The notes beneath the pieces are model-generated. The model had not been told where the DNA came from. It searched no databases and worked only from the letters and a program-made list of their open reading frames with translations. Below, in pieces: positions 47,417 through 64,000 of a DNA stretch of 64,000 bases. The position numbers and the translations under genes are program-made. This DNA is from an uncultured Halieaceae bacterium (lineage in GTDB: Bacteria; Pseudomonadota; Gammaproteobacteria; Pseudomonadales; Halieaceae): the NCBI GenBank assembly GCA_938074045.1, contig CALJGI010000015.1:56019-120018 (forward strand), read 5' to 3'. The stretch's first letter is position 1. Every line of letters begins with the position of its first letter.

Positions 47417-47659
47417 TTACAGCATCTCAAACTGGCAATCCATCAGAGTTACCAGATCATCAAAGTCCTGCGCTGACAGGCTCATCGCGCGACATATATT
47501 GGAGCGGTTGCTATTCATCGATCGAAGTTGGCAGAAGAGATCAAAGTTCACCTGTGCCAGTTTCAGGGGATGTATCGCCACTTGCGGTCGAATGCTTACG
47601 CCAAATTCCCTGGGGGTGTCAGGGATGGTGGTAATGGACTGTTCGGGTCGATTTTGCAT
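47417..47659 (-). CDS. Hypothetical 80-aa protein
   Basis: This is the only sizeable ORF in the 47322-47978 gap and is co-oriented with the Fe-ADH gene. I recognised no family. Confidence 0.3.
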   Translation of the reverse strand: MQNRPEQSITTIPDTPREFGVSIRPQVAIHPLKLAQVNFDLFCQLRSMNSNRSNICRAMSLSAQDFDDLVTLMDCQFEML

Positions 47660-47840
47660 AACTGACTTCCTTTTTTGATCGAGTGTGTTTCAGTTCATGT
47701 GTTGCAACATATATGCCAGCTTTTTCTGATCCCCGGTTTGGCGCACCTCAACACCAACTCAACCTGTGAAATTTGGCGTCCAAAGGGGTTACGGACGCGA
47801 TATTGATCGACTGTTTCTGCAGAACGAATGCATGGTGAAT

Positions 47841-47852
47841 TGCAAAATGCAA
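47841..47852 (+). promoter_or_regulatory. TGCAAAATGCAA motif (TGCAWWWTGCAA family), candidate regulator/enhancer site upstream of the LruC gene
   Basis: This is one of three near-identical 12-mers that I found in intergenic regions heading the accessory operons. It lies 127 nt upstream of ATG 47979. Confidence 0.35.
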
Positions 47853-47978
47853 AAAGTATCTTTTGATCTTGCAGTCAGAGTCGCGGAGGCCAGTAAAAAC
47901 GGACCGATATGTTCGGTCTGGATTGGCATGAATCTTGAAGGTATTCAGGCAAATTGATTTCGTCAAAGAAGCCTGTTT

Positions 47979-50234
47979 ATGAAGTTCAGTACAGTTTTTA
48001 AGCGTGTCTTGTCGACTCTGGTTTTTCTCATGATCTGCAGCCCCTCCGTGGCTGCGCCGTTTTCTGCATGCCCCAATGAGGCATTTCTGACTCAGGGCAA
48101 ACCAGGGGTGCTCTATGGCGTTAATCTGACCAGTGGGCAGTACGATTTACTGAGCGAACTCAACACCGTGAATAAACTCAATGGTATGGGCTTTAATTAC
48201 CATGATGGCTATTTATACGCCTGGTATTATGAAGGGCAGACCCTCGCCAGAATTCATGCCGACTACTCCATAGAGCCGCTTACCCTGCAGCCGGCTTTGT
48301 CGCTGCAATACTACGTAGGTGACACTTCAGTTGCGGAAAATGCGCACTTCCTGTATCGAAAAAATGGAGATGACGGTGGACTTTGGCGCATAGAGCTTGA
48401 CCCGTCCGGGCAGGATTATCTTGCGGCGACTCGGATAGCCACCACCAGCAACCTCTACCTCAACATATTCGATATGGCTTTTCACCCATCGGACGGCTTT
48501 ATCTACAGCGTGGATAATATCGGTCGCCTGTACCGAATATCACCCGCCAATGGCAGCAGGACCGTGTTAGGAAATGTCGGTGAGTCAGGCACCTTTGGTG
48601 CGGTTTACTTTGATGCGGGTGGTCAGCTTTATATCAGTCGAAATCAGGATGGTCGTATTTTCAGAATTGACCCAAATGACGCGTCACCCACGGCTCAGTT
48701 CTTTTCCTATGGGCCAGCGTCCAGCAACAACGATGGCGCTCGATGCGCTCTGGCACCGGTTGCTGAGCCGGCGACGCCCTCTATGGATTTCGGTGATGCG
48801 CCCATCAGCTACGGCACCCGCATGGCGGAGAATGGCGCTCGCCATGTGGTAGTCAGTGGTATTCGACTGGGTGGCAAGATAGATGCTGAGAACAGGGCTT
48901 TCCTGGCGCCAGACGAGTCCGATGATGCCAAGGATGGCAGCGATGATGAAGATGGCGTGCAGGTTGTGACATCCATTACCCAGGGTGAGCAGGCAATTTT
49001 GCAGGTGGCTACCACTGGCAATGGGTTCCTGAATGTATGGATTGATCTGGACCGTAACGGTACTTTTGATGGCGCTGATCAGTTGGTCACAGATCTGGAG
49101 CTGTCAGGCTCGACACATTTTGTCACCATGGATGTACCTGCGGAATCTGCCATTGGACCAAGCTGGATGCGGGTACGCTACGCCAGCACCGTGGGCCTGT
49201 CTGCAACCGGAGCAGCGAGTGATGGTGAGGTTGAAGACTATCCCATCGAAATCACGCGACCTTCAACTAAGGTAGAGTATTACCCTTCAGAATCCGGGGT
49301 GGTAACCGTCGCCTTTGAGGATCTTTGGCCATCGGTCGGTGACTACGATCTGAATGATCTCGTAGTCTATTTGCGTACCTCCATCACATCAGACACAGAC
49401 GCTGGACAGCGGATCAGACAGATATCGGTTGAAGGTGAGTTTGCCGCGGTTGGGGCGGCATTTCACAGTGGCTTTGCCATTGCCATTCCCGGGCTCAAGA
49501 CTAAAGACGTAGATTATGCCAAGACGGAATTGCTAATAGATGGAAAAATTCCAACCGCTGTATCTGGCGGTACCATTGGGGAATTTCAGCCATTACAGGG
49601 AATAGCTATTGCGCAAAATCAGAATGCGCTGTTTGAGATAACCAGAGATTTGTGGAACGTTGTTGAAAAAGGTGAAGGCTGTGCCTTTTTCCGTTCCGAT
49701 AATAACTGTGGTGCGGCGAACAGAGTGCCGTTCTCGTTGGTGATCCCGGTGGTAGGTAACGTCCCCTTGTCGTCAATCGAGAAAGGAGCGTTTGATCCGT
49801 TTTTATTTGCAACCACGGGCTACGGAAGAAGCAGCATATTTGTGGACAGCCAGGGTAATCCATTGGCGCCCGGAGATGGGCTCGAAATCCACCTCAAAAA
49901 TCAATTGCCAACCTGGCGTGCTGATCAGGCTTTGCTGGGACGGTCTTCTGATCGCTCACAGTCCGCCACGCTTAATGCCGCGGGTAGTCCCGTCAGCTAT
50001 CAGACAGCCAACGGTTTGCCATGGGCAATTGAGGTGCCTGCCAGGTGGTGTTATCCCTCCGAATATCAGGATCTATCAATCGCATATCCTGATTTTCCGT
50101 TGTTTGTGCTCAGTAACGGCACCCAGGCCAGGAACTGGTATGTCGTCGGCAATGCCGCTTCACACCCCACCCGGGGAGCAGCGGGATATCTCTACAAACA
50201 AGACGGTTTGCTTGATGCAAGTTGTGCGCAATAA
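47979..50234 (+). CDS. Secreted LruC-domain protein with GEVED domain and N-terminal repeat (DUF6923-like) region
   Basis: It has a signal peptide ending SVAAP and repeated ...DGxLY... propeller-like units. DFGDAPISYG...DDEDGV...DGEVEDY marks a GEVED domain, and VAFEDLWPSVGDYDLNDLVV is the LruC/DUF4842 signature. Confidence 0.75.
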   Translation: MKFSTVFKRVLSTLVFLMICSPSVAAPFSACPNEAFLTQGKPGVLYGVNLTSGQYDLLSELNTVNKLNGMGFNYHDGYLYAWYYEGQTLARIHADYSIEPLTLQPALSLQYYVGDTSVAENAHFLYRKNGDDGGLWRIELDPSGQDYLAATRIATTSNLYLNIFDMAFHPSDGFIYSVDNIGRLYRISPANGSRTVLGNVGESGTFGAVYFDAGGQLYISRNQDGRIFRIDPNDASPTAQFFSYGPASSNNDGARCALAPVAEPATPSMDFGDAPISYGTRMAENGARHVVVSGIRLGGKIDAENRAFLAPDESDDAKDGSDDEDGVQVVTSITQGEQAILQVATTGNGFLNVWIDLDRNGTFDGADQLVTDLELSGSTHFVTMDVPAESAIGPSWMRVRYASTVGLSATGAASDGEVEDYPIEITRPSTKVEYYPSESGVVTVAFEDLWPSVGDYDLNDLVVYLRTSITSDTDAGQRIRQISVEGEFAAVGAAFHSGFAIAIPGLKTKDVDYAKTELLIDGKIPTAVSGGTIGEFQPLQGIAIAQNQNALFEITRDLWNVVEKGEGCAFFRSDNNCGAANRVPFSLVIPVVGNVPLSSIEKGAFDPFLFATTGYGRSSIFVDSQGNPLAPGDGLEIHLKNQLPTWRADQALLGRSSDRSQSATLNAAGSPVSYQTANGLPWAIEVPARWCYPSEYQDLSIAYPDFPLFVLSNGTQARNWYVVGNAASHPTRGAAGYLYKQDGLLDASCAQ

Positions 50235-50264
50235 CTATTGGATCACCATCGGGAAGAAACCACA

Positions 50265-51203
50265 ATGAAACACGATTATAGACGGAACATTTACATCAGT
50301 GCTGCCTTTGCCATTGGCTTGAATACGTCGGGATGTGTATACACGTCCTTGTCGTCATCCACGCATGCTGAGCTATATCGCTGGGATGATAGCGGCTTGA
50401 CACTCGTTGCCAGTAGAAACGTTATGGAAGACCGTGAATCGAATCGATACTTCAACTTCTCAGACATCCTCATAAAAGACAAAACGCTGGAACAGCTTGG
50501 TGATGCACCTTACGTATTCAGAAGCTGTGATGTGGCTGTATGCCATGAAATAGTACTGTTCCACGACAACGTGGAGGAAGGACCGCACAATCTGCTGATC
50601 GGTGGGTTTGCAGCGTCCGGGTTGTCCACGGCAATGTACCGTGAGGTAGCTGATCTGGACCCAGCTGATGCCCGGCAGGCCCTCAATGAGTTGGCGGCAC
50701 AATTGCTTCGTGAGCCAGGACTGGATAATCACTATACAGAATTTGTGCAGCTCGACCTGAGCGCGGCGCAGGATAATGCGAAACTCAAGAGTGTTGCCTG
50801 GGAAAGTTATGCTCAGGAGGCGATAAGCTCAGGAGAGGAGATGTCGATAAATCAGATCGTACGTTCCAGTGTTACCGCTACGCGAGATCTATCAAGCGAC
50901 GCTGATTTTACGTTCTCCACAGCGCAGAACATTTTTCTGGATATCGATGTATCGGAACGCATGACAGACAATGTTCATTTATCTGTATGCGGAGACTTCC
51001 AGAAGTCAGGTATTGGTTACCTGGTGAACTATGCTGACTGTCAATTGAAAGTGATGATGTTAGATGGCAGCTACCAGGGTAGTTTACGACAATCTCAGGC
51101 AGGGGGAGAGCTCCTGATTACCCTACTGCCGGTCAGCAGCCCGGAAGATATTGAGTATTTTCTGTGGGACAGTGCGGTTGAAAATATATTTTCTGTGCGG
51201 TGA
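50265..51203 (+). CDS. Hypothetical lipoprotein
   Basis: MKHDYRRNIYISAAFAIGLNTSGC has a lipobox-like end. The gene follows the LruC gene by 30 nt. I recognised no family. Confidence 0.55.
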   Translation: MKHDYRRNIYISAAFAIGLNTSGCVYTSLSSSTHAELYRWDDSGLTLVASRNVMEDRESNRYFNFSDILIKDKTLEQLGDAPYVFRSCDVAVCHEIVLFHDNVEEGPHNLLIGGFAASGLSTAMYREVADLDPADARQALNELAAQLLREPGLDNHYTEFVQLDLSAAQDNAKLKSVAWESYAQEAISSGEEMSINQIVRSSVTATRDLSSDADFTFSTAQNIFLDIDVSERMTDNVHLSVCGDFQKSGIGYLVNYADCQLKVMMLDGSYQGSLRQSQAGGELLITLLPVSSPEDIEYFLWDSAVENIFSVR

Positions 51204-51236
51204 CTGGCATAAAGAGTGGAATGTAATAGAGGAAGG

Positions 51237-51254
51237 GCCCCCGCGAGCGGGGGC
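51237..51254. terminator. GC-rich hairpin between convergent genes (GCCCCCG-CGAG-CGGGGGC)
   Basis: It has a 7-bp perfect stem and a 4-nt loop. No clear U-tract is present on either strand. Confidence 0.45.
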
Positions 51255-51318
51255 GTGCTGCTGAACCTGTGGTATGTGTGGGGTTAGCTGGCACTGCAGA
51301 AGAGAGGGGTGGGGGTGA

Positions 51319-51978
51319 TTAGTAAGCGCCTCGCGCTGACAGCACTGCGGGCACTGTGCGGATAAGAATGAGGAGGTCGGTCAATACAGAGCGGTTGTCG
51401 ATATACTCCAGATCCAGTCGTACCTGATCAGTGAAGGGTAGCTCAGATCTTCCGGATATTTGCCAAAGGCAGGTAATCCCCGGTACAACGGCGAGGCGCT
51501 GCATCTCGTAGCTGCTGTATTCGGCAACTTCGGAAGGAATTGGTGGGCGGGGGCCAACCAGCGTCATATCACCAGAAACAACATTCCACAGTTGCGGCAG
51601 CTCGTCGACTGAAAACTTTCTGATCCATTTCCCAAGCCGGGTGATACGTGGATCCTGGCGTATCTTGAAAGTGGGGCCGTCACTGATTTCATTGCTGTCT
51701 GACAGCATGTTTTTAATTGCTTCGGCGTCTACCACCATTGACCTGAACTTCCAGCACGTGAAATGGCTGCCGTCTTTTCCTACCCTCGTCTGTCCGAAAA
51801 GGACTGGCCCTGGACTGTCTAATTTAAGCGCTGCTGCTACCAGCAGTAGGAAGGGTAGGGCTACCAGCAGAGCGATGCCTGCCACAGCTATATCTATGGC
51901 TCGCTTGATCATTTCATAGGTGGTAACAGATTGGATGTGCAGGGTTGAGTAGGCCCACAGGTTTGTTATTCGTTGCAT
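51319..51978 (-). CDS. Polyprenyl-phosphate sugar-phosphate transferase (Bac_transf family; WbaP C-terminal-domain-like priming enzyme)
   Basis: It has the motifs KRAIDIAVAGIALLV, SPGPVLFGQTRVG, FKIRQDPRITRLG, DELPQLWNV..GDMTLVGPRP. I chose ATG 51978 (GGAGA upstream) because ATG 52014 would lie upstream of the predicted sigma-54 transcription start. ATG 51912 is also possible. Confidence 0.85.
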   Translation of the reverse strand: MQRITNLWAYSTLHIQSVTTYEMIKRAIDIAVAGIALLVALPFLLLVAAALKLDSPGPVLFGQTRVGKDGSHFTCWKFRSMVVDAEAIKNMLSDSNEISDGPTFKIRQDPRITRLGKWIRKFSVDELPQLWNVVSGDMTLVGPRPPIPSEVAEYSSYEMQRLAVVPGITCLWQISGRSELPFTDQVRLDLEYIDNRSVLTDLLILIRTVPAVLSARGAY

Positions 51979-52020
51979 TGTAGAGTTCTCCAGAATGTCC
52001 TTGTTGACACTCATCTACGT

Positions 52021-52036
52021 CGCAAACCGCGTGCCA
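52021..52036 (-). promoter_or_regulatory. Sigma-54 (-24/-12) promoter candidate for the priming transferase gene
   Basis: The minus strand reads TTGGCACG-CGGT-TTGCG, a perfect TGGCACG-N4-TTGC core. The predicted +1 is near 52010. Confidence 0.65.
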
Positions 52037-52101
52037 ATCCTACAACTAATTGAAATACATGAAGAAATCTTTGTGATGCTTGAGATGGCGTGTAGATTCA
52101 C

Positions 52102-52113
52102 TGCAATTTGCAA
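52102..52113. promoter_or_regulatory. TGCAATTTGCAA motif (TGCAWWWTGCAA family; inverted repeat TGCAA-T-TTGCA) between the divergent sigma-54 promoters
   Basis: It lies 65 nt from the minus-strand -24 element and 133 nt from the plus-strand -24 element, which is enhancer-like geometry. Confidence 0.4.
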
Positions 52114-52244
52114 AGCCTTCTGCAACTCATGCTGCGCCATGCTAATAAATCCGGTCGCTACGAATTCTGCGTTGCTAGGCTCAGAACCTATAAAAACAGT
52201 AATTTTTGAGTATTTTTTACGGCTTTATTTGGCGTCAGGAAAAC

Positions 52245-52260
52245 TGGCACGAACTCTGCA
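52245..52260 (+). promoter_or_regulatory. Sigma-54 (-24/-12) promoter candidate for the DUF6492-GT4-flippase-sulfotransferase operon
   Basis: The sequence is CTGGCACG-AACT-CTGCA, with invariant GG and GC at the correct spacing and one mismatch to TTGC. The predicted +1 is near 52271, the RBS GGAGAG is at 52283-52288 and the ATG is at 52296. Confidence 0.6.
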
Positions 52261-52295
52261 TTCCCTTGTGTAGATGCCAATTGGAGAGACTAAAA

Positions 52296-53174
52296 ATGCA
52301 GCAAGAGAAGTTGACCGAGACAGATATAGCGCTGGTCACGTGTTCATACGGCCCAGATTTTAAGCGTTGCCAGCGGCTGTGCGCCAGTGTGGACCAGTAT
52401 GTACCTGCGGCGATTGAACATATTCTGGTGGTCCCAGCAGAAGATCAAAAACTATTCAGTCAATTAGGTACTGGCAATCGAGTCATTGTCAGCGTTGAAG
52501 ACACTCTTCCATGTCGCTTCTCCCGAATTCCAATGACGAGAAAGTGGTGGCTGGGACCAAACTTTTGGCCCGTTCGCGGATGGATGTTGCAACAGCTCAC
52601 CAAATTGAGCGCGGACAGGCTGACGGACCGAGAGCTCATCATGTTTGTGGATTCGGACATCGAGTTTATTCGACCGCTGCTGACAGGACTGATTGTGCAA
52701 GGGGAATTGTGCCGACTGCACCGTCATCCTGGAGAGAAAAATACTGGAGAACACCTTAGGTGGCATCACATGGCAGCAGAGGTCCTCGATCTACCTAAAC
52801 AGTACTTCGGTAGTGATTATATTGCGCCTCTGGTCACATGGCGAAGAAGCAATCTGATCAGCTTGAAAAACATTATGCAGATACGTTCACAGCTGCCATG
52901 GCATGAATTATTGCTGCGGCGATTAACTATGTCTGAGTACATTTTATATGGAGTTTATGTTGAACATGTGTTGGGCGAGGACAACAACGGCCATTTCCCG
53001 GACGATGGGACACTTTGTCATTGCTGTTGGTTTGGTGAAGACGCCAATTTGTTGAATCGTGAACAGCGCGTCAGTGATTCTTCCCTTGCGGTTCTCATTC
53101 AATCCAATATCGGCCTGTCTGTTGATCATGTCGATGCCTTGATGCAGCAAGTACGCACCCAACTGGCACGTTAG
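52296..53174 (+). CDS. DUF6492-like protein, putative GT-A-like nucleotide-sugar transferase
   Basis: It has IALVTCSYGPDF... and a DxD-like motif FVDSDIEF. It is the first gene of the plus-strand polysaccharide operon. The family call is from memory. Confidence 0.5.
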   Translation: MQQEKLTETDIALVTCSYGPDFKRCQRLCASVDQYVPAAIEHILVVPAEDQKLFSQLGTGNRVIVSVEDTLPCRFSRIPMTRKWWLGPNFWPVRGWMLQQLTKLSADRLTDRELIMFVDSDIEFIRPLLTGLIVQGELCRLHRHPGEKNTGEHLRWHHMAAEVLDLPKQYFGSDYIAPLVTWRRSNLISLKNIMQIRSQLPWHELLLRRLTMSEYILYGVYVEHVLGEDNNGHFPDDGTLCHCCWFGEDANLLNREQRVSDSSLAVLIQSNIGLSVDHVDALMQQVRTQLAR

Positions 53175-53186
53175 GAGACACCCGTG

Positions 53187-54440
53187 ATGAAGAAAATGCT
53201 GTTTCTAACATCGGAATTACCCTGGCCATTGCATAGTGGTGGTAAATTAAAGACCTTCAAGCTGCTGGAATCACTGGCATCAAAGTATGATGTAACACTC
53301 GTATGCCCTTTGAAAGGTGAAGACGAGCAATATCTCAATGAGTTTTGTCGTCTATCGCCATGCCGAATTCATCTGCATGAGCCCGTTGATCGTGCCAGAA
53401 ATGCGACTAACCTGGTAAAGAGCTATATCGCCGGTGTACCACTGAATGTACTGCGGAGTTATAGCGAGCAGTTGGCGTCGAGGACACGCAAAATAGCTGC
53501 ACACTTCGACGTGATCTTTCTCGATCACTATGAGTTGCATTACTACATACCGCAATCTCAGTTTGGGAAAGTGATTTATCACGCTCACAACACCTACCAC
53601 AAGATTTGGCAAACCTACGCGGCGACGCCAGGCAATATCTTATTTAGAGCGGCTGCATGGCTGGAGTTTAAGCGGGTTAAGACCTGCGAGAAGCGGCTGT
53701 GTAAAAAGGTAAGGTTAGTACTGGCTGCACCTGGCGATATTGAAATCCTGAGTCAGGGTTTGTCAGGCTCCGTGCCATTCCACCCGACATACCACTTGGG
53801 AAACAGCTCTCAGCTGACCATGCCAGATCTGGCGTTTGATCGATCAAAGCATAAGTTGGTCTACGTTGGTTTTCTTGGCTGGGAGCCGAATTCAGCAGGA
53901 CTGTTGTGGTTTATTGAGCGGGTTTGGCCCAGGTTGGTCAATGTGTTTCCCGAGCTTACCTTTGACATTGTAGGCAAAAACCCGGATCAGCGACTGTCTT
54001 CGGCTGTAGCCCAACACCGGGGGATTACGCTCTGTGGCTTTGTTGAAGATCTGGAAACGGTCTACCAGCAAGGGAGTGTTTCTGTTGCCCCTTTGCTGTT
54101 TGGAAGCGGCATGAAAGTTAAGGTATTAGATGCTATGTCCCGCGGATTGCCCGTGGCAACTACCTCGATCGGGGCTGAGAGCATTGCCTGTGACCATGGA
54201 GAGCATCTAATGATCGGCGATACTCCAGAGTTGATGACTGAGAACATTACTCAATTGTTGCGTGATGAAGGGCTATGGAATCGATTGCAGCTCAGTTCTC
54301 GTCAACTTATTCGCGAACACTATACCTGGGAATCCATGTTTTCCGAGATGCACAGGGTGATCGACTGTTTGGATATCTGCGTGACCGACCGCAGAAGTAG
54401 CGACGTGATGTTGCAATTGTCGCTGGTTGGAGAGCGCTAG
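53187..54440 (+). CDS. Glycosyltransferase family 4 (GT-B, Glycos_transf_1)
   Basis: The N-terminus is MKKMLFLTSELPWPLHSGGKL. The C-terminal region LVYVGFLGWEPN...SGMKVKVLDAMSRGLPVATTSIGAE carries an EX7E-like motif. Confidence 0.8.
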   Translation: MKKMLFLTSELPWPLHSGGKLKTFKLLESLASKYDVTLVCPLKGEDEQYLNEFCRLSPCRIHLHEPVDRARNATNLVKSYIAGVPLNVLRSYSEQLASRTRKIAAHFDVIFLDHYELHYYIPQSQFGKVIYHAHNTYHKIWQTYAATPGNILFRAAAWLEFKRVKTCEKRLCKKVRLVLAAPGDIEILSQGLSGSVPFHPTYHLGNSSQLTMPDLAFDRSKHKLVYVGFLGWEPNSAGLLWFIERVWPRLVNVFPELTFDIVGKNPDQRLSSAVAQHRGITLCGFVEDLETVYQQGSVSVAPLLFGSGMKVKVLDAMSRGLPVATTSIGAESIACDHGEHLMIGDTPELMTENITQLLRDEGLWNRLQLSSRQLIREHYTWESMFSEMHRVIDCLDICVTDRRSSDVMLQLSLVGER

Positions 54441-54443
54441 CAC

Positions 54444-55742
54444 ATGACGAGCCTATGCAAAATGAGTGTATTGGCTCTGAGTCGGGGCTTTGCAGTCTGC
54501 GCCCAGTTCGCCGTGCAAATTATAGTGGGTTATGTGGCGGGAGCGGCAGCCCTGGGAAGTTATCAATTGTTTACGGTGTGGTCGGCAATCCTGGGTGAGG
54601 GTATTGGCCGTGGTTTGCCAACCGGTACGATGAAAAAGGTCAGCGTGAATTTTGCAGAGGGAAAGTTATCGTCTATTTCGAATTGGATGGCATGGTCCTG
54701 TCGCGAGATAATCAGAGGTTGCGTGCCTCTCTTTTTACTATTCGTTCTGTTTTCGCTAGCGGCACGGATAGCCGGACTGCAAGTCAGTGATACTGCATTG
54801 GCATTTTGCGGTGGCGTCCTCCTTGCCGCGCCCTTGTTTGCCCTGAGTCGGGTTTATGCTGAAGCATTGAAGGCTATCGAACGACAGGTATTCGCCGTCG
54901 CAGTTGAAAACCTCATGGTCCCTGCATTCATATTGCTGCTGTGTGGTGTCTATGTAATTTTTGGATTGAGCGTCAATGAGGTGGCTCTTTTGATGGCATT
55001 TTCTGCCGCAGTTCTGTCTTCTTATTTGATAATGAGGCGAGCGCTTTTGAGATCCCTTTATGGCCTTTTGAATTCTTCTAAAGGCACAGAGTCTTGCCTG
55101 CCTCATTCTCGGGAGCTTAAGTATTTTTGGTTAATCGGATTACTCAATATTTGTTCATTGCAGATGCCTTTCCTTGTGCTTCCCTTATTCGCAGATTTGG
55201 CGGAGATAGGAGTGTTTGCTTTAGCCTTTAAGTTCATTAATGTGGTCACCACGATTCTCCTACTTTTATCGGCGGTATATAGTCCGCGCATGGCTCGCGC
55301 CGCGGCTATACACGATGTTTCCGGACTCCGCAGTCTGCTGCAGCAGACGCAGCTGATATCTGTGTGCGTATTTGTACCCTTAACCGCGTTTATCTACTTA
55401 AGCAGTGGATATATATCTGAATATCTGGGAGAAGACTTTGTAGGAGTCAAGGCTTTCTATCTTATTCTTGCCGTAGGCTATTTGTTCAATGCGGCGACCG
55501 GGTTACAAGGCGTACTGCTTAACATGGCGGGCGCTGCAAAGTTTGAAACCATTATTTCGGTTATTGTGATGGTAGTGTCTTTTTTTGCAGCGCTGGCATT
55601 CGGTCACCAGTACGGCGTAACTGGCGTTGCCATGGTATTCACCTGTGCTATTGCTTTAAAGAATATAGCGTCATATCTGGTGGCACTGTACTGGTTGAAT
55701 CACCTGGAAGTGGCCTCAAGAGATTTGGTGGTGGCTGTATGA
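54444..55742 (+). CDS. Polysaccharide flippase (Wzx-like, MOP superfamily)
   Basis: The protein is 432 aa with ~12 predicted TM segments and sits inside a glycan locus. It overlaps the sulfotransferase start by ATGA. Confidence 0.7.
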   Translation: MTSLCKMSVLALSRGFAVCAQFAVQIIVGYVAGAAALGSYQLFTVWSAILGEGIGRGLPTGTMKKVSVNFAEGKLSSISNWMAWSCREIIRGCVPLFLLFVLFSLAARIAGLQVSDTALAFCGGVLLAAPLFALSRVYAEALKAIERQVFAVAVENLMVPAFILLLCGVYVIFGLSVNEVALLMAFSAAVLSSYLIMRRALLRSLYGLLNSSKGTESCLPHSRELKYFWLIGLLNICSLQMPFLVLPLFADLAEIGVFALAFKFINVVTTILLLLSAVYSPRMARAAAIHDVSGLRSLLQQTQLISVCVFVPLTAFIYLSSGYISEYLGEDFVGVKAFYLILAVGYLFNAATGLQGVLLNMAGAAKFETIISVIVMVVSFFAALAFGHQYGVTGVAMVFTCAIALKNIASYLVALYWLNHLEVASRDLVVAV

Positions 55743-56689
55743 GAGATACGCGCAGAGAGAACGCTCTGGATTTTGTGATTGTAGGCGCACAAAAATCAGC
55801 AACAACATCTTTGTTTGAAATACTTAAAAACCACCCCCTCATCAGCTTGCCTATTGAAAAGGAAGTGCCGTTTTTTTCTGGTGATGATTTCGACCCCAGG
55901 CTGTGGCCCCGGTTTATGCAGTGTCACTTCGATGCAGCCTCACCCGGACAGATACTGGGAAAAATAAGCCCACAGTACATGTGTGACAGGCGGGTTGCAG
56001 GACGACTGGCCGGGCTGATGCCAGAAGTGCGGGTGATAGCTATATTACGAGATCCCATTGAGCGCAGCTGGTCGCATTTCCAAATGGGTAAGCGGCGGAT
56101 GACTGAGGAGAGGGATTTTTCAGGGGCGGTACGCGAGCTACTGGAGATCGATGCTCAGGAAAAAGCGGTATCACAAACGCCTCCGACCCACGCTGATGGT
56201 TATGAGTCGGAAGGCGATTTTTATCTGGCCTGGAGTGAATATGGTCGCCAGCTTACGGAGTTTTACCAGCACTTCTCCAGCGACCAGATACTGGTGCTTT
56301 TCACAGAAGACCTGAAGCGCGACCCGCAGTTGGTTATTGATCGCGTTCTGGCTTTCATAGGTCTTGCATCCGGTTACTCGCCAGCAAATCTCTCAACCAG
56401 ATCTCACCAGGGCGGGGGCGGTATGAAAATTTCTCACAACGTACGGGAGTGGTTTCGGCAGTGCCCACCCGTAGGTTGGCTGTGGTCACTGGTGCCGCCG
56501 CGTATACAGGGGAGAATCCGGTTCAAATATGAGCAATGGAACATTAGCGGGAGAGACGATCAAATGCCCCTGTGTGATGACCTGCGACAACTCCTTTATT
56601 CGCATTTTGCGAGAGACTTGAATCGCCTGAATGACTATGTCGAGTTGCTGCCGGAATGGAAATCGAGATATCGCCTGGATCTGCAGTAG
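55739..56689 (+). CDS. PAPS-dependent sulfotransferase (heparan-sulfate sulfotransferase-like, Sulfotransfer_1 type)
   Basis: It has the 5'-PSB loop FVIVGAQKSATTSL and the 3'-PB motif ILRDPIERSWSHF. Confidence 0.75.
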   Translation: MRDTRRENALDFVIVGAQKSATTSLFEILKNHPLISLPIEKEVPFFSGDDFDPRLWPRFMQCHFDAASPGQILGKISPQYMCDRRVAGRLAGLMPEVRVIAILRDPIERSWSHFQMGKRRMTEERDFSGAVRELLEIDAQEKAVSQTPPTHADGYESEGDFYLAWSEYGRQLTEFYQHFSSDQILVLFTEDLKRDPQLVIDRVLAFIGLASGYSPANLSTRSHQGGGGMKISHNVREWFRQCPPVGWLWSLVPPRIQGRIRFKYEQWNISGRDDQMPLCDDLRQLLYSHFARDLNRLNDYVELLPEWKSRYRLDLQ

Positions 56690-56695
56690 GCACGT

Positions 56696-56707
56696 TGCAT
56701 AATGCAA
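56696..56707. promoter_or_regulatory. TGCATAATGCAA motif (TGCAWWWTGCAA family; inverted repeat TTGCAT-A-ATGCAA)
   Basis: It lies in the 153-nt gap between the sulfotransferase and exporter genes, ~110 nt upstream of the sigma-54-like element at 56816. Confidence 0.4.
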
Positions 56708-56815: not shown

Positions 56816-56831
56816 TGGCATTCGCCTTGCA
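56816..56831 (+). promoter_or_regulatory. Sigma-54-like -24/-12 element directly upstream of the exporter gene
   Basis: The sequence is TTGGCAT-TCGCC-TTGCA, with GG and GC at the correct spacing. The predicted +1 (~56842) abuts ATG 56843, so no leader or RBS would exist. Confidence 0.35.
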
Positions 56832-56842
56832 CTACATTGGGT

Positions 56843-59737
56843 ATGAAAACATATATTGCAATTTTCCGAGGGGTTTGTGCCGCCGCACTGGTCGTCTGGA
56901 GCGGGTCTTTGATGGCTTCTACTTATGAACCTTTTGTTGAACCTCTGGCGGCGGAACAACAGCGTCAATACCAGCAAGCAGGTGCGCGGGGTGCGGATGC
57001 TCCCCTGCAACCGCCTCAGGTTCCTCTCACGATAACGGTGCCGTCGGCCGTTGCGTCGACACTCACAGCACTTGACGACTCCGTTACTGATCGTCTGGGT
57101 GCCGTGACGGCGCTGGAGCGGCCGGTTGACCAGAAATTGGACATGCCGTTGCCGCATTTTGGGTATGACCTGTTCAATGTCGTACCGAGCACCTTTGCGC
57201 CGGTTGATAGCATACCAGTGCCGGCTGATTACAAGATCGGCCCTGGTGATACGTTGGTTATCCAACTGTTTGGAAACCGTAATGTTGAATTTACCCTGGT
57301 AGTCACCCGCGATGGTCAGATACTGATCCCTGAATACGGTCCACTGGCGGTAAGTGGGCTAACCTTTGATGAAGCTGAACGGCTGATCGTTGAGGGGTTT
57401 GAGCAGCGGGTTATTGGTGCGAAGGCGGTCGTCTCAATTGGTAAATTGCGCACCATCCAGGTAAGGGTGACTGGTGACGTAAACCAGCCCGGTATCTATA
57501 CCGTGGGCGCTCTGACCACCCTCATCGATGCCCTGATTGTGACGGGCGGAGTAAAGACGACGGGGTCCTTGCGCCGCATTCGGTTATACCGTGGTGATGT
57601 CATGGTCAGTCAGCTCGACTTATACGATCTGCTACTTCGCGGCCACACCAGGGGAGACGCCACACTTCGTCATGGCGACACCATCTTTGTGCCCGCTCTG
57701 GGCCCAGTCGCCTATGTTGCGGGTGAGGTCCAGCGACCCGCTATATACGAGCTGCTAGGCAAAGTTCAGCTGGACTCATTGATCGACATGGCCGGAGGAC
57801 TGCTGCCGGGAGCCTCCCTGACTTCATCTCATATTGAGCGAATCTCAGTTGGTGCAGGCAAGACCATCATTGATCTTGGCTCCATTGGTAAACGTTCTCT
57901 TGAAGATATTACAGTCGTCAATGGTGATCTTCTGCGGGTGCTGCCCAAGGAAGATCGACTGGATAATGTGGTTTTCCTCGAGGGACACGTGCGTCGTCCT
58001 GGTGGTTATCAGTTTCTGGAGCAGATGCGGCTCTCAGAGTTGATCTCAGGTCCAGAGGAATTGCTCCATGGCGCGGATATAGGCTTCGCCGCCATTCGGC
58101 GTGAAAACCCGACCACTCTGCGCACGGAGATAATCTATTTCAAGCCAGAAGAGTTATTTGGAAACCGTGGTGGCGCGCCAGATATTGCGCTCGTTAATCG
58201 CGATGTTGTTATGTTTTTTCGCGCCGCTGAGGCCAGAGAGAAAGTTTTGGCGGGTCTGGTCAAGGAGTTGCGTGAGCAGGCCGGTCACGGCCGACCCCCG
58301 CATACGATCGTTGTCAGTGGCTCGACCAAACATACGGGAACGTTTCCATTGCAAGCGGGAGCGCGATTGCTGGATGTAGTAGCTCTGGCTGGCGGTGTGC
58401 GTAGCGACACCGACCGTGCCTATGTTGTGGTGTCCAGCATGGACGAAGGTGATGACCAACTCTCCATGCGCGCGGTGGATCTTGAAGCGGCTACGCGATT
58501 TCCCGAGCACGATGATAACCTGCTCATTCGCCCGCGAGACAAAATCTATTTCTTTGGCGTGAACTCCGACCGGTCCGCGCTCATGGAGGACGACCTGTAT
58601 ACATTGAGGGAACAAGCAAGGTATGGCGCTGAGGTATTGACTGTGGGTGTGCTGGGTGAGGTATCTGCCCCCGGCACCTATCCTCTTGAGCCCGGCATGC
58701 GGACCAGTGATCTTGTTTGCGCAGCGGGTGGTTTGACCCGAAAGGCTGCTGGACTCAATGCCAGTCTTTCCCGTCACAGCAAGGATGGGCAAAGCCAGAA
58801 GCTGGTAGAGCATATCCAGATCGATATCGTGGCATTACTCAGCTTGTGTGAATATAGATTAGCGGTAAAACGGGGTGATGCCCTTTCGGAGGCACAGCAC
58901 CTCTACATGTCCCGGCTGGCTGAAATGGCTGACGATTATGTGCTGCAACCGATGGATCAGCTGGCGGTTAGTGTCAAGGCAAACTGGGTTGAAAAGTCGG
59001 TCGTGTATCTATCTGGTGAAGTGATTAATCCAGGTTCTTACGTTATTGATCCTGGAGAAACTCTTTGTGAAGTGCTGCAAAGAGCTGGTGGTATTACTAA
59101 TCGCGCTTATCTCCTGGGTGCTGTATTTACCCGTCAATCTGCTCTGGAAATGCAACAAAAAACCATCGAGCAGATACAGGGGCAACTGGATGAGCTAATG
59201 GTTGAGTTGTCGCTTTCTCACTCTGCACGCAACGCAGAAAAGAATGCCGAAAATGTGGGTGACAAGCGGGATTATCTGAACGTCATTAATCAGTTGGAAC
59301 GAGCCAAGCCTACTGGTCGGGTAGTGATTGATCTTGAGGAGCAATTGCGCTGTCGGCGCAAGTCGCAAATGGCGTTGCAAGACGGGGATCGACTGGAAGT
59401 CCCCATTCGACCTGACTTTGTCATGGTTTCCGGACAGGTATACGTGCCGACCAGTCAGCAGTACACGAAGGAAAGAACCGTCGCTGACTATGTAAAGCTC
59501 AGTGGGGGTCACACAGTATTGGGGCGACTTAACGACACATTTGTTATTCAGCCCAATGGTGAAGTATTGAACTATAGCGGAAGACGTCGCTCGTCCTCTA
59601 TTGCGCACAGGCATGTTATGCCCGGCGCCAGAATTTTTGTGCCGCTGAACGTGGATCGAATGAATGCCACTGAGAAGGCGCAGAGCTGGGTTAGCTCGCT
59701 GACGCAGGCAGCTTTGTTGGCGGGGTTGGTGTTGTGA
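56843..59737 (+). CDS. Very large outer-membrane polysaccharide export protein (Wza/OPX family; Poly_export domain plus about seven SLBB repeats)
   Basis: It has a signal peptide MKTYIAIFRGVCAAALVVWSGSLMA and the Poly_export motif YKIGPGDTLVIQLFGN. Iterated G-x-V-x2-PG-x-Y units are present (VTGDVNQPGIYTV, VAGEVQRPAIYEL, LEGHVRRPGGYQF, VSGSTKHTGTFPL, LGEVSAPGTYPL, LSGEVINPGSYVI, VSGQVYVPTSQQY). The C-terminus is hydrophobic (WVSSLTQAALLAGLVL). Confidence 0.8.
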   Translation: MKTYIAIFRGVCAAALVVWSGSLMASTYEPFVEPLAAEQQRQYQQAGARGADAPLQPPQVPLTITVPSAVASTLTALDDSVTDRLGAVTALERPVDQKLDMPLPHFGYDLFNVVPSTFAPVDSIPVPADYKIGPGDTLVIQLFGNRNVEFTLVVTRDGQILIPEYGPLAVSGLTFDEAERLIVEGFEQRVIGAKAVVSIGKLRTIQVRVTGDVNQPGIYTVGALTTLIDALIVTGGVKTTGSLRRIRLYRGDVMVSQLDLYDLLLRGHTRGDATLRHGDTIFVPALGPVAYVAGEVQRPAIYELLGKVQLDSLIDMAGGLLPGASLTSSHIERISVGAGKTIIDLGSIGKRSLEDITVVNGDLLRVLPKEDRLDNVVFLEGHVRRPGGYQFLEQMRLSELISGPEELLHGADIGFAAIRRENPTTLRTEIIYFKPEELFGNRGGAPDIALVNRDVVMFFRAAEAREKVLAGLVKELREQAGHGRPPHTIVVSGSTKHTGTFPLQAGARLLDVVALAGGVRSDTDRAYVVVSSMDEGDDQLSMRAVDLEAATRFPEHDDNLLIRPRDKIYFFGVNSDRSALMEDDLYTLREQARYGAEVLTVGVLGEVSAPGTYPLEPGMRTSDLVCAAGGLTRKAAGLNASLSRHSKDGQSQKLVEHIQIDIVALLSLCEYRLAVKRGDALSEAQHLYMSRLAEMADDYVLQPMDQLAVSVKANWVEKSVVYLSGEVINPGSYVIDPGETLCEVLQRAGGITNRAYLLGAVFTRQSALEMQQKTIEQIQGQLDELMVELSLSHSARNAEKNAENVGDKRDYLNVINQLERAKPTGRVVIDLEEQLRCRRKSQMALQDGDRLEVPIRPDFVMVSGQVYVPTSQQYTKERTVADYVKLSGGHTVLGRLNDTFVIQPNGEVLNYSGRRRSSSIAHRHVMPGARIFVPLNVDRMNATEKAQSWVSSLTQAALLAGLVL

Positions 59738-60678
59738 TGATCAATCACTCAGAGCACTTGGTTGCGCCTCCGACCGCTGCGTTGGAAATAGACCTGTGGC
59801 CCTATGTGGCTGCGCTGTTGGAATCCTGGCGTTTGGTATTGATGGCGGGTGTGCTCGCTGGAGCACTGGCTTATGTTGCTGGACAGATGGCGTCGCCCCT
59901 GTATGAGTCATCAGCGCGAATCAGCGTTGTGGATATCGAGGATCCGGGCGGCGTGTCACCGGATGATCGGCGGGCACCAGAAGTGCTCACCCTGGTGGAG
60001 CATGGATTCATCATGGGTACTACGCGAGATAATTATGACCAGGTGATGTTGGCCCGCTTGCGATCGCGTCAGTTTGCGCAGCTTTTTCTGGACACATTCA
60101 ATATTTATAAGCATATGTTTCCGGAGCATTGGGACAACGTGCAGGACGATTGGAAGAACGGTTTCGAACTGGACCGTGGACTCGCCTTTACAATATTCAG
60201 AGACAGTGTTCGCCTGATCGAGCATGACGAAGAGACCGACATAATCACTGTGAAAATGCAGTGGCCAGATGCGCTCCTGGCAAAAGAATGGGTGAATAAT
60301 TACATCGTTTTATTCAACGACTACATGCGAAAAAAGACTCTTGGCGACGTCGAAAAAAAGCAGAGCTTTCTGATCGAGGAATTGAAGAAGTCGGAGTTGG
60401 TAGATATTGAACGTTCGATATACCGATTGATAGAAGCACAGACTGCGATCGCCATGCTGGCGCATGCGCGCGAGGAATATGTACTGGAAGTCATAGACCC
60501 GGGTGCACTGCCCTACGCGAGCGTGAGTATGTCCCCAAGGAAAAGAGCGCTGTTGGGTTTTATGACCGGCTTGTTGCTGTCTGTTTTCTTCTTGTTTTGC
60601 AAAATCTTATTGATTCGTTTACTGGCGCGTTTTCGCCAACATCAAGAGACCTATCAGGTCGATATTTATGAGAAATGA
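59734..60678 (+). CDS. Wzz-like polysaccharide co-polymerase / chain-length determinant (no kinase domain)
   Basis: It has an N-terminal Wzz motif region with TM1 (WRLVLMAGVLAGALAYVA), a coiled-coil periplasmic region and a C-terminal TM segment (LLGFMTGLLLSVFFLF). It overlaps the exporter stop. Confidence 0.7.
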   Translation: MMINHSEHLVAPPTAALEIDLWPYVAALLESWRLVLMAGVLAGALAYVAGQMASPLYESSARISVVDIEDPGGVSPDDRRAPEVLTLVEHGFIMGTTRDNYDQVMLARLRSRQFAQLFLDTFNIYKHMFPEHWDNVQDDWKNGFELDRGLAFTIFRDSVRLIEHDEETDIITVKMQWPDALLAKEWVNNYIVLFNDYMRKKTLGDVEKKQSFLIEELKKSELVDIERSIYRLIEAQTAIAMLAHAREEYVLEVIDPGALPYASVSMSPRKRALLGFMTGLLLSVFFLFCKILLIRLLARFRQHQETYQVDIYEK

Positions 60679-62254
60679 TATGACACATGCAGCTCTTTAT
60701 GACGAACGTCAGTTTGTTAATTCGCTCGGTATTCCAGTGGATAACCTGACAATGCACGAGGCGGTGGAAGAGGTGATCAAACTCGCCAGACGTAGGGATG
60801 GCAGATCCCGCTGGGTAGCGACTCTGAATGTTGATTTTCTGACCAATTCACTGGGGTTTGGTTTTGCAAAGCCTCGGCACCCCGAACTGCTGGACGTACT
60901 CAGAAACTCGGATCTTGTGACCGCCGACGGATTTCCGATTCTGTGGCTGAGCCGGATGACGGGCCATACCCTCAAACAGCGTGTAACCGGTGCAGATCTT
61001 ATGCCAGCTATCGCAGCGCGTTCCGCTCAAGAAGGCTTGTCTTTGTATTTGTTGGGTGGAGCGCCAGGAAGCGCAGAGGACGCTGCTGCGATTTTGCAGG
61101 AGCAAAATCCCGGCCTGGCGATAGCTGGATGCGCTGCACCATACATTTCAACTTCAGGACCACAGCTGGTCAATTGGTCAGATGATGATGATGCCATAGT
61201 GGAATTGATCAACAGCTCTGGCGCCGATGTTCTCTTTATTGGATTGGGCAATCCCAAGCAGGAACTATGGTTTAGTCGCAACAGGGAACGTTTGAATGTA
61301 CCTGTATCTATGGGTGTGGGTGGCACCTTCGAGTTTATTACCGGGCGGGTAGCTCGAGCGCCCCAGTTGTTGCAACGCTGTAACCTGGAGTGGGCCTATC
61401 GAATAACGAGGGACCCCCAGCGTCTGTGGAAGCGATATGCGGTGGGTGTTGTAAAGCTGACCATACTTGCAGCGCCTCTATTGTGGCTTCGACTTATAGA
61501 TACTTATTACAACCTTGCACATCCGGTGAAAAAGGGTACTGCGGTTTGGAAAACAATCTGGTCTTCGAAAGCCAGATCGATCCAGCTGTGTCGGCTACCT
61601 GCGCAAGTCATTGATGAGCACTTGATGGACATAGTGCGACGCCAGCGTATGCCATTATGTGGAGACAGTCTTTTGTTTATAGACTTTTCGGCGGTTGATC
61701 ATGTCGACCTGGCGGCGCATCATCATTTTTTCCGCCTGGCGGCATTGGCCGGCAGTCCAGGCCGCGATGTGCAATTGTTGGGTGTTTCACCGGATTTACA
61801 GCGTCGATTAGGCGCGAGCCGGTTGATTGATCTGTTTGATTCCTCTGTTGCGGGTGATTCAATTTCCTCGTTGAGAGATCTGAATTCGGCGGATGAATCT
61901 GGTTTTGGATGCTCCAGTTATGTGCTCGAAAGCAGCGCCATCATCTTTCTCAGCGGCAAGGTTACCGGTGCAAGTCTGAACGGGATCGGATTCCAGGAGT
62001 GTTTGTTACAGAACACCAGGCAACGTACATGTGTTCTGGACATGAGGCGGGTTGATGCCGTGGATACGTCGGGGCTGGCTGAGTTGTATGCGGCTTGCGC
62101 AGCTGCAGCCGAGGAAGGCGGCGCCGTGCTAGTTAGTGGGGCTGGAGAACTCACCAGGCAGGCCATGAGAATCTGTGGCCTGGATTGGCCGGTTGAGTTC
62201 ATTGATGATCTGGAAATGTTGTCCTGGATTGTTGGCGAGGCATCTCGTGCCTGA
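60668..62254 (+). CDS. WecB/TagA/CpsF (GT26) glycosyltransferase fused to two C-terminal STAS domains
   Basis: GT26 motifs occupy aa ~20-262 (GIPVDNLTMHEAV, VATLNVDFL, ADGFPILWLSR, YLLGGAPG, GLGNPKQELW, MGVGGTFEFITGRVARAP, EWAYRITRDPQRLWKRY). STAS1 spans aa ~295-395 (LLFIDFSAVDHVDLAA...VQLLGVSPDLQRRL). STAS2 spans aa ~415-520 (CVLDMRRVDAVDTSGLAEL...VLVSGAGELTRQAMRICGL). Confidence 0.75.
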   Translation: MRNDMTHAALYDERQFVNSLGIPVDNLTMHEAVEEVIKLARRRDGRSRWVATLNVDFLTNSLGFGFAKPRHPELLDVLRNSDLVTADGFPILWLSRMTGHTLKQRVTGADLMPAIAARSAQEGLSLYLLGGAPGSAEDAAAILQEQNPGLAIAGCAAPYISTSGPQLVNWSDDDDAIVELINSSGADVLFIGLGNPKQELWFSRNRERLNVPVSMGVGGTFEFITGRVARAPQLLQRCNLEWAYRITRDPQRLWKRYAVGVVKLTILAAPLLWLRLIDTYYNLAHPVKKGTAVWKTIWSSKARSIQLCRLPAQVIDEHLMDIVRRQRMPLCGDSLLFIDFSAVDHVDLAAHHHFFRLAALAGSPGRDVQLLGVSPDLQRRLGASRLIDLFDSSVAGDSISSLRDLNSADESGFGCSSYVLESSAIIFLSGKVTGASLNGIGFQECLLQNTRQRTCVLDMRRVDAVDTSGLAELYAACAAAAEEGGAVLVSGAGELTRQAMRICGLDWPVEFIDDLEMLSWIVGEASRA

Positions 62255-63284: not shown

Positions 63285-63288
63285 CTCT

Positions 63289-64000
63289 GTGAGCTTTATT
63301 GCGTCAGATGCCGGCCATGCATTACGCGCTTTGAGATTCTCGGTAAGGCTGAGCGAATGGATACCAATGGTGCTTATCTTTCTGTACGTGTTTGCAGGGT
63401 GTCAGGGTGGCAGGTACTACCTGGCAAACCGGCTACAGGAGCTGGGTATATTAAGTGCCATGCTGCTGTTATTGATCGGCGGCTGGCAGGCCATGTACCG
63501 CTTGTCTCTGAGGGAGTGGGCTGCCTGGTGTTTGAAGCCTGTAGCGCTGATGCTGGGCGTGATGGGAATTAGCTCACTGGTGTTTTACTTCAACTACTCG
63601 GGTAATCCGCTGTACAGCTTTTTCTCTGCGCGAGAGGTAATGTTACTGATGGGTGGCCCAGGTATCTATCTGCTGTATCGCAGCGACTTGCCTCTTTCAT
63701 GTATTGAAAGAGCGATATACACCGGGTTGCTGGCGCTCATGCTGAACTACCTGTTCTTCTACTACACCATGGATTTAAAGGCAGCCTTTTTCTCCAGTGA
63801 TCACACCGTGAGCAACTTGGTCACCTACGACGAGTGGCGGGGCTTCCGGCTGAAGCCGCCACTGTTTGCCGTCATGGTCGTGTTACTCAGTGCGCTCATG
63901 GCGATGCTGCAGGGCGGCAAAGGTTGGTTGAGGTGGCTGTCTGTGCTGGCTTTCAGCGCGGCCTGCTACATCTGGTCCATCGTTTTGTTTCGATCGATAT
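63289..64000 (+). CDS. Polytopic membrane protein, probable polysaccharide polymerase (Wzy/O-antigen-ligase-like); 3' end outside window
   Basis: I translated this frame by hand and it is open from 63289 to 64000 with no stop. It is absent from the ORF track because it has no stop in the window. The sequence is highly hydrophobic (VLIFLYVFAG..., LLLLIGGWQAMY..., LMLGVMGISSLVFYF...). The start is GTG 63289, TTG 63331 or ATG 63367. Confidence 0.6.
   Translation, partial: MSFIASDAGHALRALRFSVRLSEWIPMVLIFLYVFAGCQGGRYYLANRLQELGILSAMLLLLIGGWQAMYRLSLREWAAWCLKPVALMLGVMGISSLVFYFNYSGNPLYSFFSAREVMLLMGGPGIYLLYRSDLPLSCIERAIYTGLLALMLNYLFFYYTMDLKAAFFSSDHTVSNLVTYDEWRGFRLKPPLFAVMVVLLSALMAMLQGGKGWLRWLSVLAFSAACYIWSIVLFRSI

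Follow-up and report, generated by a model that had tools for sequence, protein, structure and literature searches.

A 13-bp inverted repeat (dyad) recurs between genes in a 64,000-nucleotide stretch of DNA from an uncultured Halieaceae bacterium (contig CALJGI010000015.1; the whole stretch analysed is called the window below). These dyads are probably upstream activating sequences (UAS, enhancers) for a bacterial enhancer-binding protein (bEBP) of the LuxO/SypG clade, whose gene is found at the 3' end of the polysaccharide locus that holds the sites; on sequence comparison, a probability of about 0.8 is given to this assignment. The evidence for a shared regulator comprises the match of the sites to the LuxO UAS, their enhancer-like distance from sigma-54 promoters, their conserved position in related genomes and the presence of a LuxO-type bEBP in the same locus.

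An earlier note on this DNA had reported three near-identical 12-mer sites, all of them intergenic. An exhaustive pattern search on both strands of the window returned forward-strand matches to TGCAWWWTGCAA at exactly the coordinates given there (47841-47852, 52102-52113 and 56696-56707), and all three are indeed intergenic. Sites 1 and 3 match on the reverse strand as well, one base leftward, because they are palindromic. In total, the window holds five matches at three loci versus 0.13 expected, and none of 100 shuffled sequences reached five. The alternative inverted-repeat registers that the note had offered were not retained: the correct register is the 13-bp dyad TTGCA-N3-TGCAA, in the form TTGCA-W3-TGCAA, with two perfect copies and one copy carrying a single mismatch. 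The count of three copies stands within the window, but a fourth perfect copy (dyad 4) is located just outside it.

The chance expectation for the 13-mer YTGCAWWWTGCAA in the window is 0.05, and exact copies are about 40-100 times more frequent than expected. When one mismatch is allowed, four 13-mers are found versus 3.4 expected, which is no enrichment, and the signal therefore resides in the exact copies. The only match besides the three sites, a single-mismatch one at 50208 (TTGCTTGATGCAA), falls within a coding region and was not taken as a site.

Each dyad is situated 72-139 bp (centre to GG) upstream of one or two sigma-54 -24/-12 elements, five of which are present in the window part of the locus (Table 1). 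The spacing of 65-135 nt to a -24-like element proposed earlier agrees with the gaps between the site ends and the forward-strand -24, which are 72, 132 and 109 nt for sites 1, 2 and 3. Site 2 alone had been placed between divergent promoters. This placement is correct for site 2, but site 1 is arranged likewise, owing to the reverse-strand element 47718->47704; sites 1 and 2 thus serve divergent promoter pairs, and site 3 serves one forward-strand promoter. The general layout of a sigma-54 enhancer, with the dyad some 70-150 bp ahead of a GG-N10-GC promoter, is present, and its position is kept across relatives. A search of the three dyad-bearing intergenic regions gave no sigma-70-like promoter, and the number of such promoters overall is at chance level; sigma-70 promoters were rejected as an alternative on this ground.

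The sequence of the dyads points to a particular class of regulator. The published LuxO UAS consensus is TTGCAWWWTGCAA (PMC10162802). Sites occupied by Vibrio cholerae LuxO in chromatin immunoprecipitation sequencing (ChIP-seq) are ttgcaaaatgcaa (qrr1), ttgcaatttgcaa (qrr2 and qrr4) and ttgcattttgcaa (qrr3) (PMC10328515). Judged by these published sites, site 1 has exactly the qrr1 sequence, and site 2 is one base off the site of qrr2 and qrr4.

No GAFTGA or Walker motif, and hence no bEBP, was found in any frame of the window. Two stretches that continue its contig (L082 and L084) were obtained by look-ups with window proteins, which brings the covered part of the source genome to about 72 kb; over the 5186 bp that L082 shares with the window end, there are 2 mismatches. 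The continuation contains a bEBP with the Pfam domains Response_reg, Sigma54_activat, AAA_lid_14 and HTH_8 and with the motifs GHVKGAFTGA and GESGTGKE. This is the architecture of Group I bEBPs: a receiver (REC), a sigma-54 AAA+ domain with GAFTGA and a Fis-type helix-turn-helix (HTH) domain. The gene is preceded by dyad 4, which is 104 bp from a -24-like element.

Four independent comparisons mark this protein as LuxO-like. At full length against NCBIfam models, it scores best on LuxO (621.7 bits), with 414.7 bits for NtrC; the bEBPs of relatives score 590-602 bits on the LuxO model. Its best match in the PDB is LuxO (5EP0), with 441 bits versus 321 for NtrC1 and 55% identity without gaps; as a yardstick, SypG and LuxO of one Vibrio genome are about 48% identical. 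Eleven residues are critical in the HTH of V. cholerae LuxO (PMC11407668), and the HTH of the bEBP, GNINRAAGLLEVVPSTIYRKLQ, keeps 11 of 11. Since several of these residues are common to the whole Fis-type family, a profile test of the domain alone was run. The last 59 residues gave 70.8 bits against LuxO positions 414-462 and no more than 24 bits against any other bEBP model. NtrC, PrsR and other bEBP types were rejected as readers of the sites; their models score far lower, above all on the DNA-binding domain.

The bEBP gene is followed by a gene for an H-NOX (HNOB) protein and then by one for a hybrid histidine kinase with HNOBA, HisKA, HATPase_c and REC domains, so that the HNOB protein adjoins a kinase with an HNOBA-like N-terminus. 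The orthologous kinases of L003, one of the related loci described below, and of Congregibacter brevis also carry an Hpt domain. This module is situated at the end of the polysaccharide locus, and the gene order is the same in the complete C. brevis genome. Within the locus, no gene resembling LuxU was seen.

Homologues of DUF6492 assign the locus to Halieaceae. By a profile search, 80 further loci were obtained, namely 26 from Halieaceae and neighbouring Cellvibrionales (L002-L027, 453 kb; the family set) and 54 from distant outgroups (L028-L081, 911 kb). The family loci contain 25 perfect dyads versus none in the outgroup loci. Most of them (22 of 25) have a sigma-54-like element, pointing away from the dyad, 55-165 bp downstream, versus about 3.5% expected from the density of such elements. 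At the equivalents of sites 2 and 3 the dyads are found again, frequently as tandem arrays of two or three copies spaced by 22-30 bp. Each of the 12 exporter upstream regions inspected holds one or more dyads with no more than one mismatch, and tandems of two or three are frequent there; the exporter promoters of relatives are 81-118 bp from the dyads. The family logo is T-Y-G-C-A-W-W-W-T-G-C-R-A, with a symmetric TCGCA...TGCGA variant.

The distances between dyad and -24 GG in the family loci cluster at about 82, 94, 104, 117 and 138 bp, i.e. with a period of about 11 bp, and five of the six dyad-promoter distances in the source genome fit this series. The periodicity is descriptive and not a formal probability, because the genomes are related. 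In an alignment of the intergenic region between Bac_transf and DUF6492 from 10 genomes (A2), mean identity is 51%, and the only invariant columns are those of the minus-strand -12/-24, the dyad core and the plus-strand -24/-12 (TGGCA...CTGC). The family consensus of A2 also holds an IHF-like block, AAAATCAATAGnTTA; in the window, a search for an IHF site between dyad and promoter gave a single one-mismatch match across five regions, and no such site is claimed.

The bEBP/H-NOX pair was found wherever the fetched flank was long enough (six loci and C. brevis). Five relatives (L002, L003, L005, L008 and L010) have dyads and a sigma-54-like promoter directly at the bEBP gene. The C. brevis bEBP gene has neither and sits inside the exporter operon, which is predicted to be dyad-driven; both layouts would give positive feedback. 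Two arrangements of the locus are observed. In arrangement A, which the window shows, Bac_transf and DUF6492 are transcribed divergently, with the bEBP at the far 3' end. In arrangement B (L002, L003, L005, L006, L008, L010 and L025) the bEBP, H-NOX and kinase are upstream, and Wzz stands directly before DUF6492. Where the operon boundaries shift between the arrangements, the dyads and sigma-54 promoters shift with them. One locus of Halieaceae type (L013) and one bEBP (P0189) are labelled 'Cryomorphaceae' and 'Planctomycetaceae' in the records of metagenome-assembled genomes, which are probably binning or labelling errors.

In the proposed scheme, where binding of the dyads by the bEBP of the locus, its activating effect and the identity and sign of the signal are inferred, a dimer of HTH domains would bind each TTGCA-W3-TGCAA dyad. 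Once its receiver domain is active, the bEBP would oligomerise. From its position 72-139 bp upstream, the oligomer would contact sigma-54 RNA polymerase at -24/-12 via DNA looping, and hydrolysis of ATP by the bEBP would open the promoters. A single dyad could serve both promoters of a divergent pair. The priming transferase gene and two polysaccharide biosynthesis/export operons would be activated together with a conserved open reading frame (ORF) of 80 amino acids (aa) and the Fe-alcohol dehydrogenase and hydrolase genes behind it. In the source lineage, the genes of a LruC-like secreted protein and of a lipoprotein would be co-activated as well. Activation of its own gene by the bEBP would close a positive feedback loop.

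The input to this system is probably provided by the adjacent H-NOX haem sensor and the hybrid histidine kinase (HNOBA-HisKA-HATPase-REC, with Hpt in relatives). In Vibrio, H-NOX bound to nitric oxide (NO) controls the kinases HqsK or HahK, which feed LuxO or SypG (PMC3759921, PMC6759604, PMC8738867, PMC12369376). LuxO receives the signal of an H-NOX-controlled kinase in V. harveyi and V. parahaemolyticus (PMC3759921, PMC6759604), and in V. fischeri NO/HnoX-HahK signalling feeds into syp (PMC12369376, PMC8738867). By analogy, NO or redox state would set bEBP phosphorylation and, through it, polysaccharide production. A more general circuit for Halieaceae and neighbouring Cellvibrionales, leading from H-NOX through an Hpt-bearing hybrid kinase and a LuxO-clade bEBP to exopolysaccharide sigma-54 promoters without Qrr or LuxU, is put forward tentatively and is considered rather doubtful. 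If it is true, direct control of surface polysaccharide by NO or redox state may be the ancestral job of the LuxO/SypG lineage, and the quorum-sensing role at Vibrio qrr genes would be a later specialisation retaining the same DNA recognition code.

Several points weigh against the assignment of the dyads to the bEBP of the locus. The link between regulator and sites is inferred from LuxO homology and genomic linkage. The score of 621.7 bits is below the NCBIfam LuxO equivalog cutoff (NF041946, 800 bits), and identical DNA specificity is therefore not guaranteed. The window sites are single dyads, versus two or three at the qrr promoters of LuxO and in many relatives, and the mismatch of site 2 is at position 1. 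Two of the promoters have a non-canonical -12, namely TTGA for the LruC-like gene and, by eye, ATGT for the source bEBP gene; the spacing of 79 bp at the former also departs from the 11-bp series. The statistics of periodicity and association draw on related genomes, in which the sites are not independent observations. The gene rpoN was not seen in the approximately 72 kb of source genome covered. This coverage also leaves room for a second LuxO-like paralogue or for many further sites.

A paralogue of this kind is the basis of an unlikely alternative, in which the dyads are real but read by another protein, either a LuxO/NtrC-family paralogue encoded elsewhere or a non-bEBP dimer such as the 80-aa protein, and the linked bEBP acts via other sequences. 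Cross-use of sites is known, since LuxO and SypG of V. fischeri use overlapping sites at qrr1 (PMC10162802), and the shortfall of the bEBP from the LuxO equivalog cutoff points in the same direction. However, the DNA-binding domain of the linked bEBP is LuxO-specific (about 70 versus at most 24 bits), and the site itself is that of the LuxO UAS. Throughout the family, bEBP and dyads are found together in this locus, with dyads also at the bEBP gene itself. The 80-aa protein belongs to no recognisable DNA-binding family and has a low-confidence model only. Still less probable is a role of the dyads mainly as repression operators (as in LuxO autorepression or roadblocking) or as purely architectural elements. 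LuxO has historically been annotated as a 'repressor protein', a name still seen in JGI records, and a protein bound at site 3, just 6 nt past the stop codon of the upstream operon, could affect read-through. Against this, the dyads stand at the classical enhancer distance with conserved and helically phased spacing, overlap neither promoters nor start codons, and have no sigma-70 promoter near them to repress.

Least credible is an origin of the shared 12-mer by chance or composition, for example as functionless TTGCA-rich sequence related to the sigma-54 -12. The -12 consensus also reads TTGCA, which could make this sequence more frequent in promoter-rich DNA, and the one-mismatch 13-mers of the window are as frequent as expected. 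The excess of exact matches, all intergenic, speaks against coincidence. Position and spacing are kept in relatives that share about 50% protein identity, and the 911 kb of outgroup loci are without dyads; the chance reading is effectively refuted by these comparative data.

Table 1. Dyads, sigma-54 elements and genes of the locus, in window coordinates unless a locus is named.
Feature	Position	Strand	Dyad centre to GG (bp)	Remarks
Dyad site 1	47840..47852	none		TTGCAAAATGCAA, perfect; between divergent sigma-54 elements
Dyad site 2	52101..52113	none		cTGCAATTTGCAA, also given as CTGCAATTTGCAA; one mismatch to TTGCA-N3-TGCAA; between divergent sigma-54 promoters
Dyad site 3	56695..56707	none		TTGCATAATGCAA, perfect; 6 nt past the sulfotransferase stop codon
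Dyad 4, outside the window	window-equivalent 64589-64601			TTGCAAAATGCAA, perfect; two-mismatch copy 24 bp upstream
Sigma-54 -24/-12 element	47704..47718	-	129	TGGCATATATGTTGC; exact match to TGGCA-N6-TTGC; serves the 80-aa ORF
Sigma-54-like element	47924..47938	+	79	TGGCATGAATCTTGA; non-canonical -12 (GA); candidate promoter of the LruC-like gene
Sigma-54 promoter	52022..52036	-	72	TGGCACGCGGTTTGC; for the Bac_transf priming sugar transferase gene
Sigma-54 promoter	52245..52259	+	139	TGGCACGAACTCTGC; for the DUF6492-GT1-flippase-sulfotransferase operon
Sigma-54 promoter	56816..56830	+	116	TGGCATTCGCCTTGC; exact pattern match; for the exporter operon
80-aa ORF	47417..47659	-		predicted regulon member conserved in relatives; followed by Fe-alcohol dehydrogenase and hydrolase
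LruC-like secreted protein	47979-50234	+		Pfam DUF6923, GEVED, DUF4842; signal peptide N-terminus
Putative lipoprotein	about 50265-51203	+		lipobox-like N-terminus; unit with the LruC-like gene 47979..51203
Bac_transf priming sugar transferase	51319-51978	-		Pfam; served from site 2
Polysaccharide operon 1	52296..56689	+		DUF6492, GT1 glycosyltransferase, MatE-like flippase, sulfotransferase (Pfam)
Polysaccharide operon 2	56843..64000	+		Poly_export/SLBB exporter, Wzz-like, WecG-STAS fusion, GT2, Wzy-like membrane protein (Pfam)
LuxO-like bEBP	window-equivalent 64758-66179			473 aa; about 760 bp past the window end
H-NOX (HNOB)	window-equivalent 66192-66740			HNOB match 1.2e-43
bEBP/H-NOX/kinase module	window-equivalent 64758-~68500			L082 5944-8267; L084 3354-7063; in relatives L003 2579-6622, L085 10001-14037
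TGGYAY-N5-TTGA promoters	47924-47938			in relatives L002 702, L003 2488, L005 4104, L008 345, L010 5607

The earlier note had also proposed that one regulator, possibly a bEBP, co-controls the LruC unit and the polysaccharide locus. Shared control is supported computationally, but the LruC-like gene appears to be a lineage-specific addition. The LruC-like gene, the lipoprotein, the Fe-alcohol dehydrogenase and the hydrolase are absent from all 26 loci of relatives and were rejected as conserved members of the regulon. The LruC-like side of site 1 looks like a lineage-specific recruitment. By comparison of these loci, the conserved target at site 1 is predicted to be the divergent ORF of about 80 aa and not the LruC-like gene. 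Downstream of the reverse-strand element that serves this ORF are a Shine-Dalgarno sequence and an ATG (47659), and the element probably also drives the downstream Fe-alcohol dehydrogenase and hydrolase genes.

The 80-aa protein has no Pfam match, and a homologue search gave back the query alone. Its single-sequence AlphaFold model is of low confidence (pLDDT 53) and too poor for a fold search. Homologues were recognised in at least seven relatives (L003, 7327-7566; L005, L006, L008, L019, L024 and L025), and they carry the C-terminal motif LDFxLF..L.KLGVSRERICSAL.IS..DF.YL. The ORF stands directly behind a dyad and a sigma-54 promoter in L003, L005 and L006, and inside the putatively dyad-driven exopolysaccharide operon in L008. 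It is always within or adjoining the polysaccharide locus, and the protein could act in the system as a small regulator or an accessory factor.

Orthologues of polysaccharide operon 1 are present in most family loci. The start codon of the exporter at the head of operon 2 is either 56843 or 56912, and the Wzy-like gene of this operon runs past the window end and continues on the same contig. Operon 2 also encodes a WecG/TagA-family glycosyltransferase with a C-terminal STAS domain (window 60668-62254; L003 641-2242; L085 5991-7586), a fusion that is kept across the family. In V. fischeri, the stand-alone STAS protein SypA reportedly controls syp polysaccharide production post-transcriptionally, and by analogy the fused domain may be a built-in regulatory handle. 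The G+C content of the polysaccharide locus (50001-56000) is 47.5-52%, versus mostly 55-58% elsewhere in the window. Surface-polysaccharide clusters often have low G+C, which would be in keeping with horizontal exchange.

Scans with Rfam found no Qrr or other small RNA (sRNA) family in the window at the gathering threshold, none in 10.5 kb around the sites at E<=1, and none in L084 and the loci of seven relatives. A Qrr or other sRNA downstream of the sigma-54 promoters was rejected on this basis. The downstream genes are protein-coding, and the targets are therefore taken to be the protein-coding polysaccharide operons.

Some promoter features of the region stand apart. TGGYAY-N5-TTGA, with GA for GC at -12, is a recurrent non-canonical sigma-54-like promoter; it precedes the bEBP genes of all five relatives listed in Table 1, in four of the five with a dyad 128-149 bp upstream, and it may represent a class of promoters with lower strength or different tuning. 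GACCGA-N5-TCGGTC (47902-47918), a perfect inverted repeat, is located directly upstream of the -24-like element of the LruC-like gene; it was flagged as terminator-like on the minus strand and could be the site of a second regulator or a chance match. An exact TGGCA-N6-TTGC is also present at 4813-4827 on the reverse strand, apparently intergenic and without a LuxO-type dyad nearby. It may be a sigma-54 promoter with a different activator or a chance match.

A literature search found no paper linking LuxO-type regulation with Halieaceae, and the enhancer, its regulon and the H-NOX linkage appear to be undescribed in the searchable literature. The similarity of the proteins to LuxO is not new, because the JGI pipeline automatically names many of these bEBPs 'repressor protein LuxO'. 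By their putative targets, the proteins so named are not the quorum-sensing LuxO, which is a point for annotation. An anonymous repeated 12-mer is turned into a testable regulon with a DNA code, a regulator class, a promoter set and a plausible H-NOX input. Bacteria of the OM60/NOR5 (Halieaceae) clade abound in coastal seawater and react to phytoplankton blooms (PMC10100682), and an exopolysaccharide/adhesin switch in this clade would bear on particle attachment and aggregation. The comparison further suggests that the LuxO recognition sequence is used outside Vibrionaceae for the direct control of protein-coding operons.

Among known systems, NtrC-type Group I regulation is similar in its dyads 70-150 bp upstream of -24/-12, helical phasing, a shared divergent enhancer and positive autoregulation. 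The Halieaceae bEBP differs from it by its LuxO-type specificity: the NtrC model scores about 200 bits lower at full length and is absent from the matches of the DNA-binding domain alone. PrsR (TIGR02915) is likewise a sigma-54 bEBP tied to exopolysaccharide loci of environmental proteobacteria. The bEBP scores 382 bits on this model, below its cutoff of 502.6 and far below the LuxO score, with 18 bits for the DNA-binding domain. No exosortase or PEP-CTERM features were noticed among the locus genes scanned.

The resemblance to the LuxO/qrr system is closer. Both systems have the same 13-bp dyad about 100 bp upstream of sigma-54 promoters and a REC-AAA+-HTH regulator, which here shares its 55% identity with Photobacterium LuxO and has a LuxO-type DNA-binding domain. 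In both systems, the gene of the regulator also has a site. In V. cholerae, LuxO occupancy by ChIP-seq is essentially at qrr genes alone (PMC10328515), whereas the Halieaceae targets are predicted to be protein-coding polysaccharide operons, no Qrr being found in the window, its extension or seven relatives. No separate LuxU was seen in the locus, and the linked hybrid kinase carries its own Hpt (L003, C. brevis). The regulator scores below the LuxO equivalog cutoff, and its host belongs to Halieaceae (Cellvibrionales), not to Vibrionaceae.

The SypG/syp system shares other traits. In both cases a LuxO-paralogous bEBP is encoded inside the polysaccharide locus that it controls, in Halieaceae putatively and from the 3' end, with several sigma-54 promoters and a shared upstream enhancer in that locus. 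The gene content is similar by functional class, which is not a statement of orthology: an exporter, chain-length proteins, glycosyltransferases, a priming transferase and a STAS-domain protein. NO input, which is probable in Halieaceae, is a further parallel, and SypG can use LuxO-type qrr1 sites (PMC10162802). The syp enhancer of SypG is TTCTCANNNTGMDWN (PMC10162802); its left half is TCTCA versus TTGCA/TCGCA here, whereas its right half, TGMDW, is matched by TGCAA. In Halieaceae, the genes for H-NOX and the kinase adjoin the bEBP gene, whereas the V. fischeri signal is routed via SypF. DUF6492, the sulfotransferase and the WecG-STAS fusion are features of the Halieaceae locus. Since the system differs from LuxO proper and does not have the SypG enhancer sequence, it is placed within the LuxO/SypG kind, as a member of neither. 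LuxO, SypG and the Halieaceae bEBP offer a natural comparison of how related regulators separate or share their enhancers.

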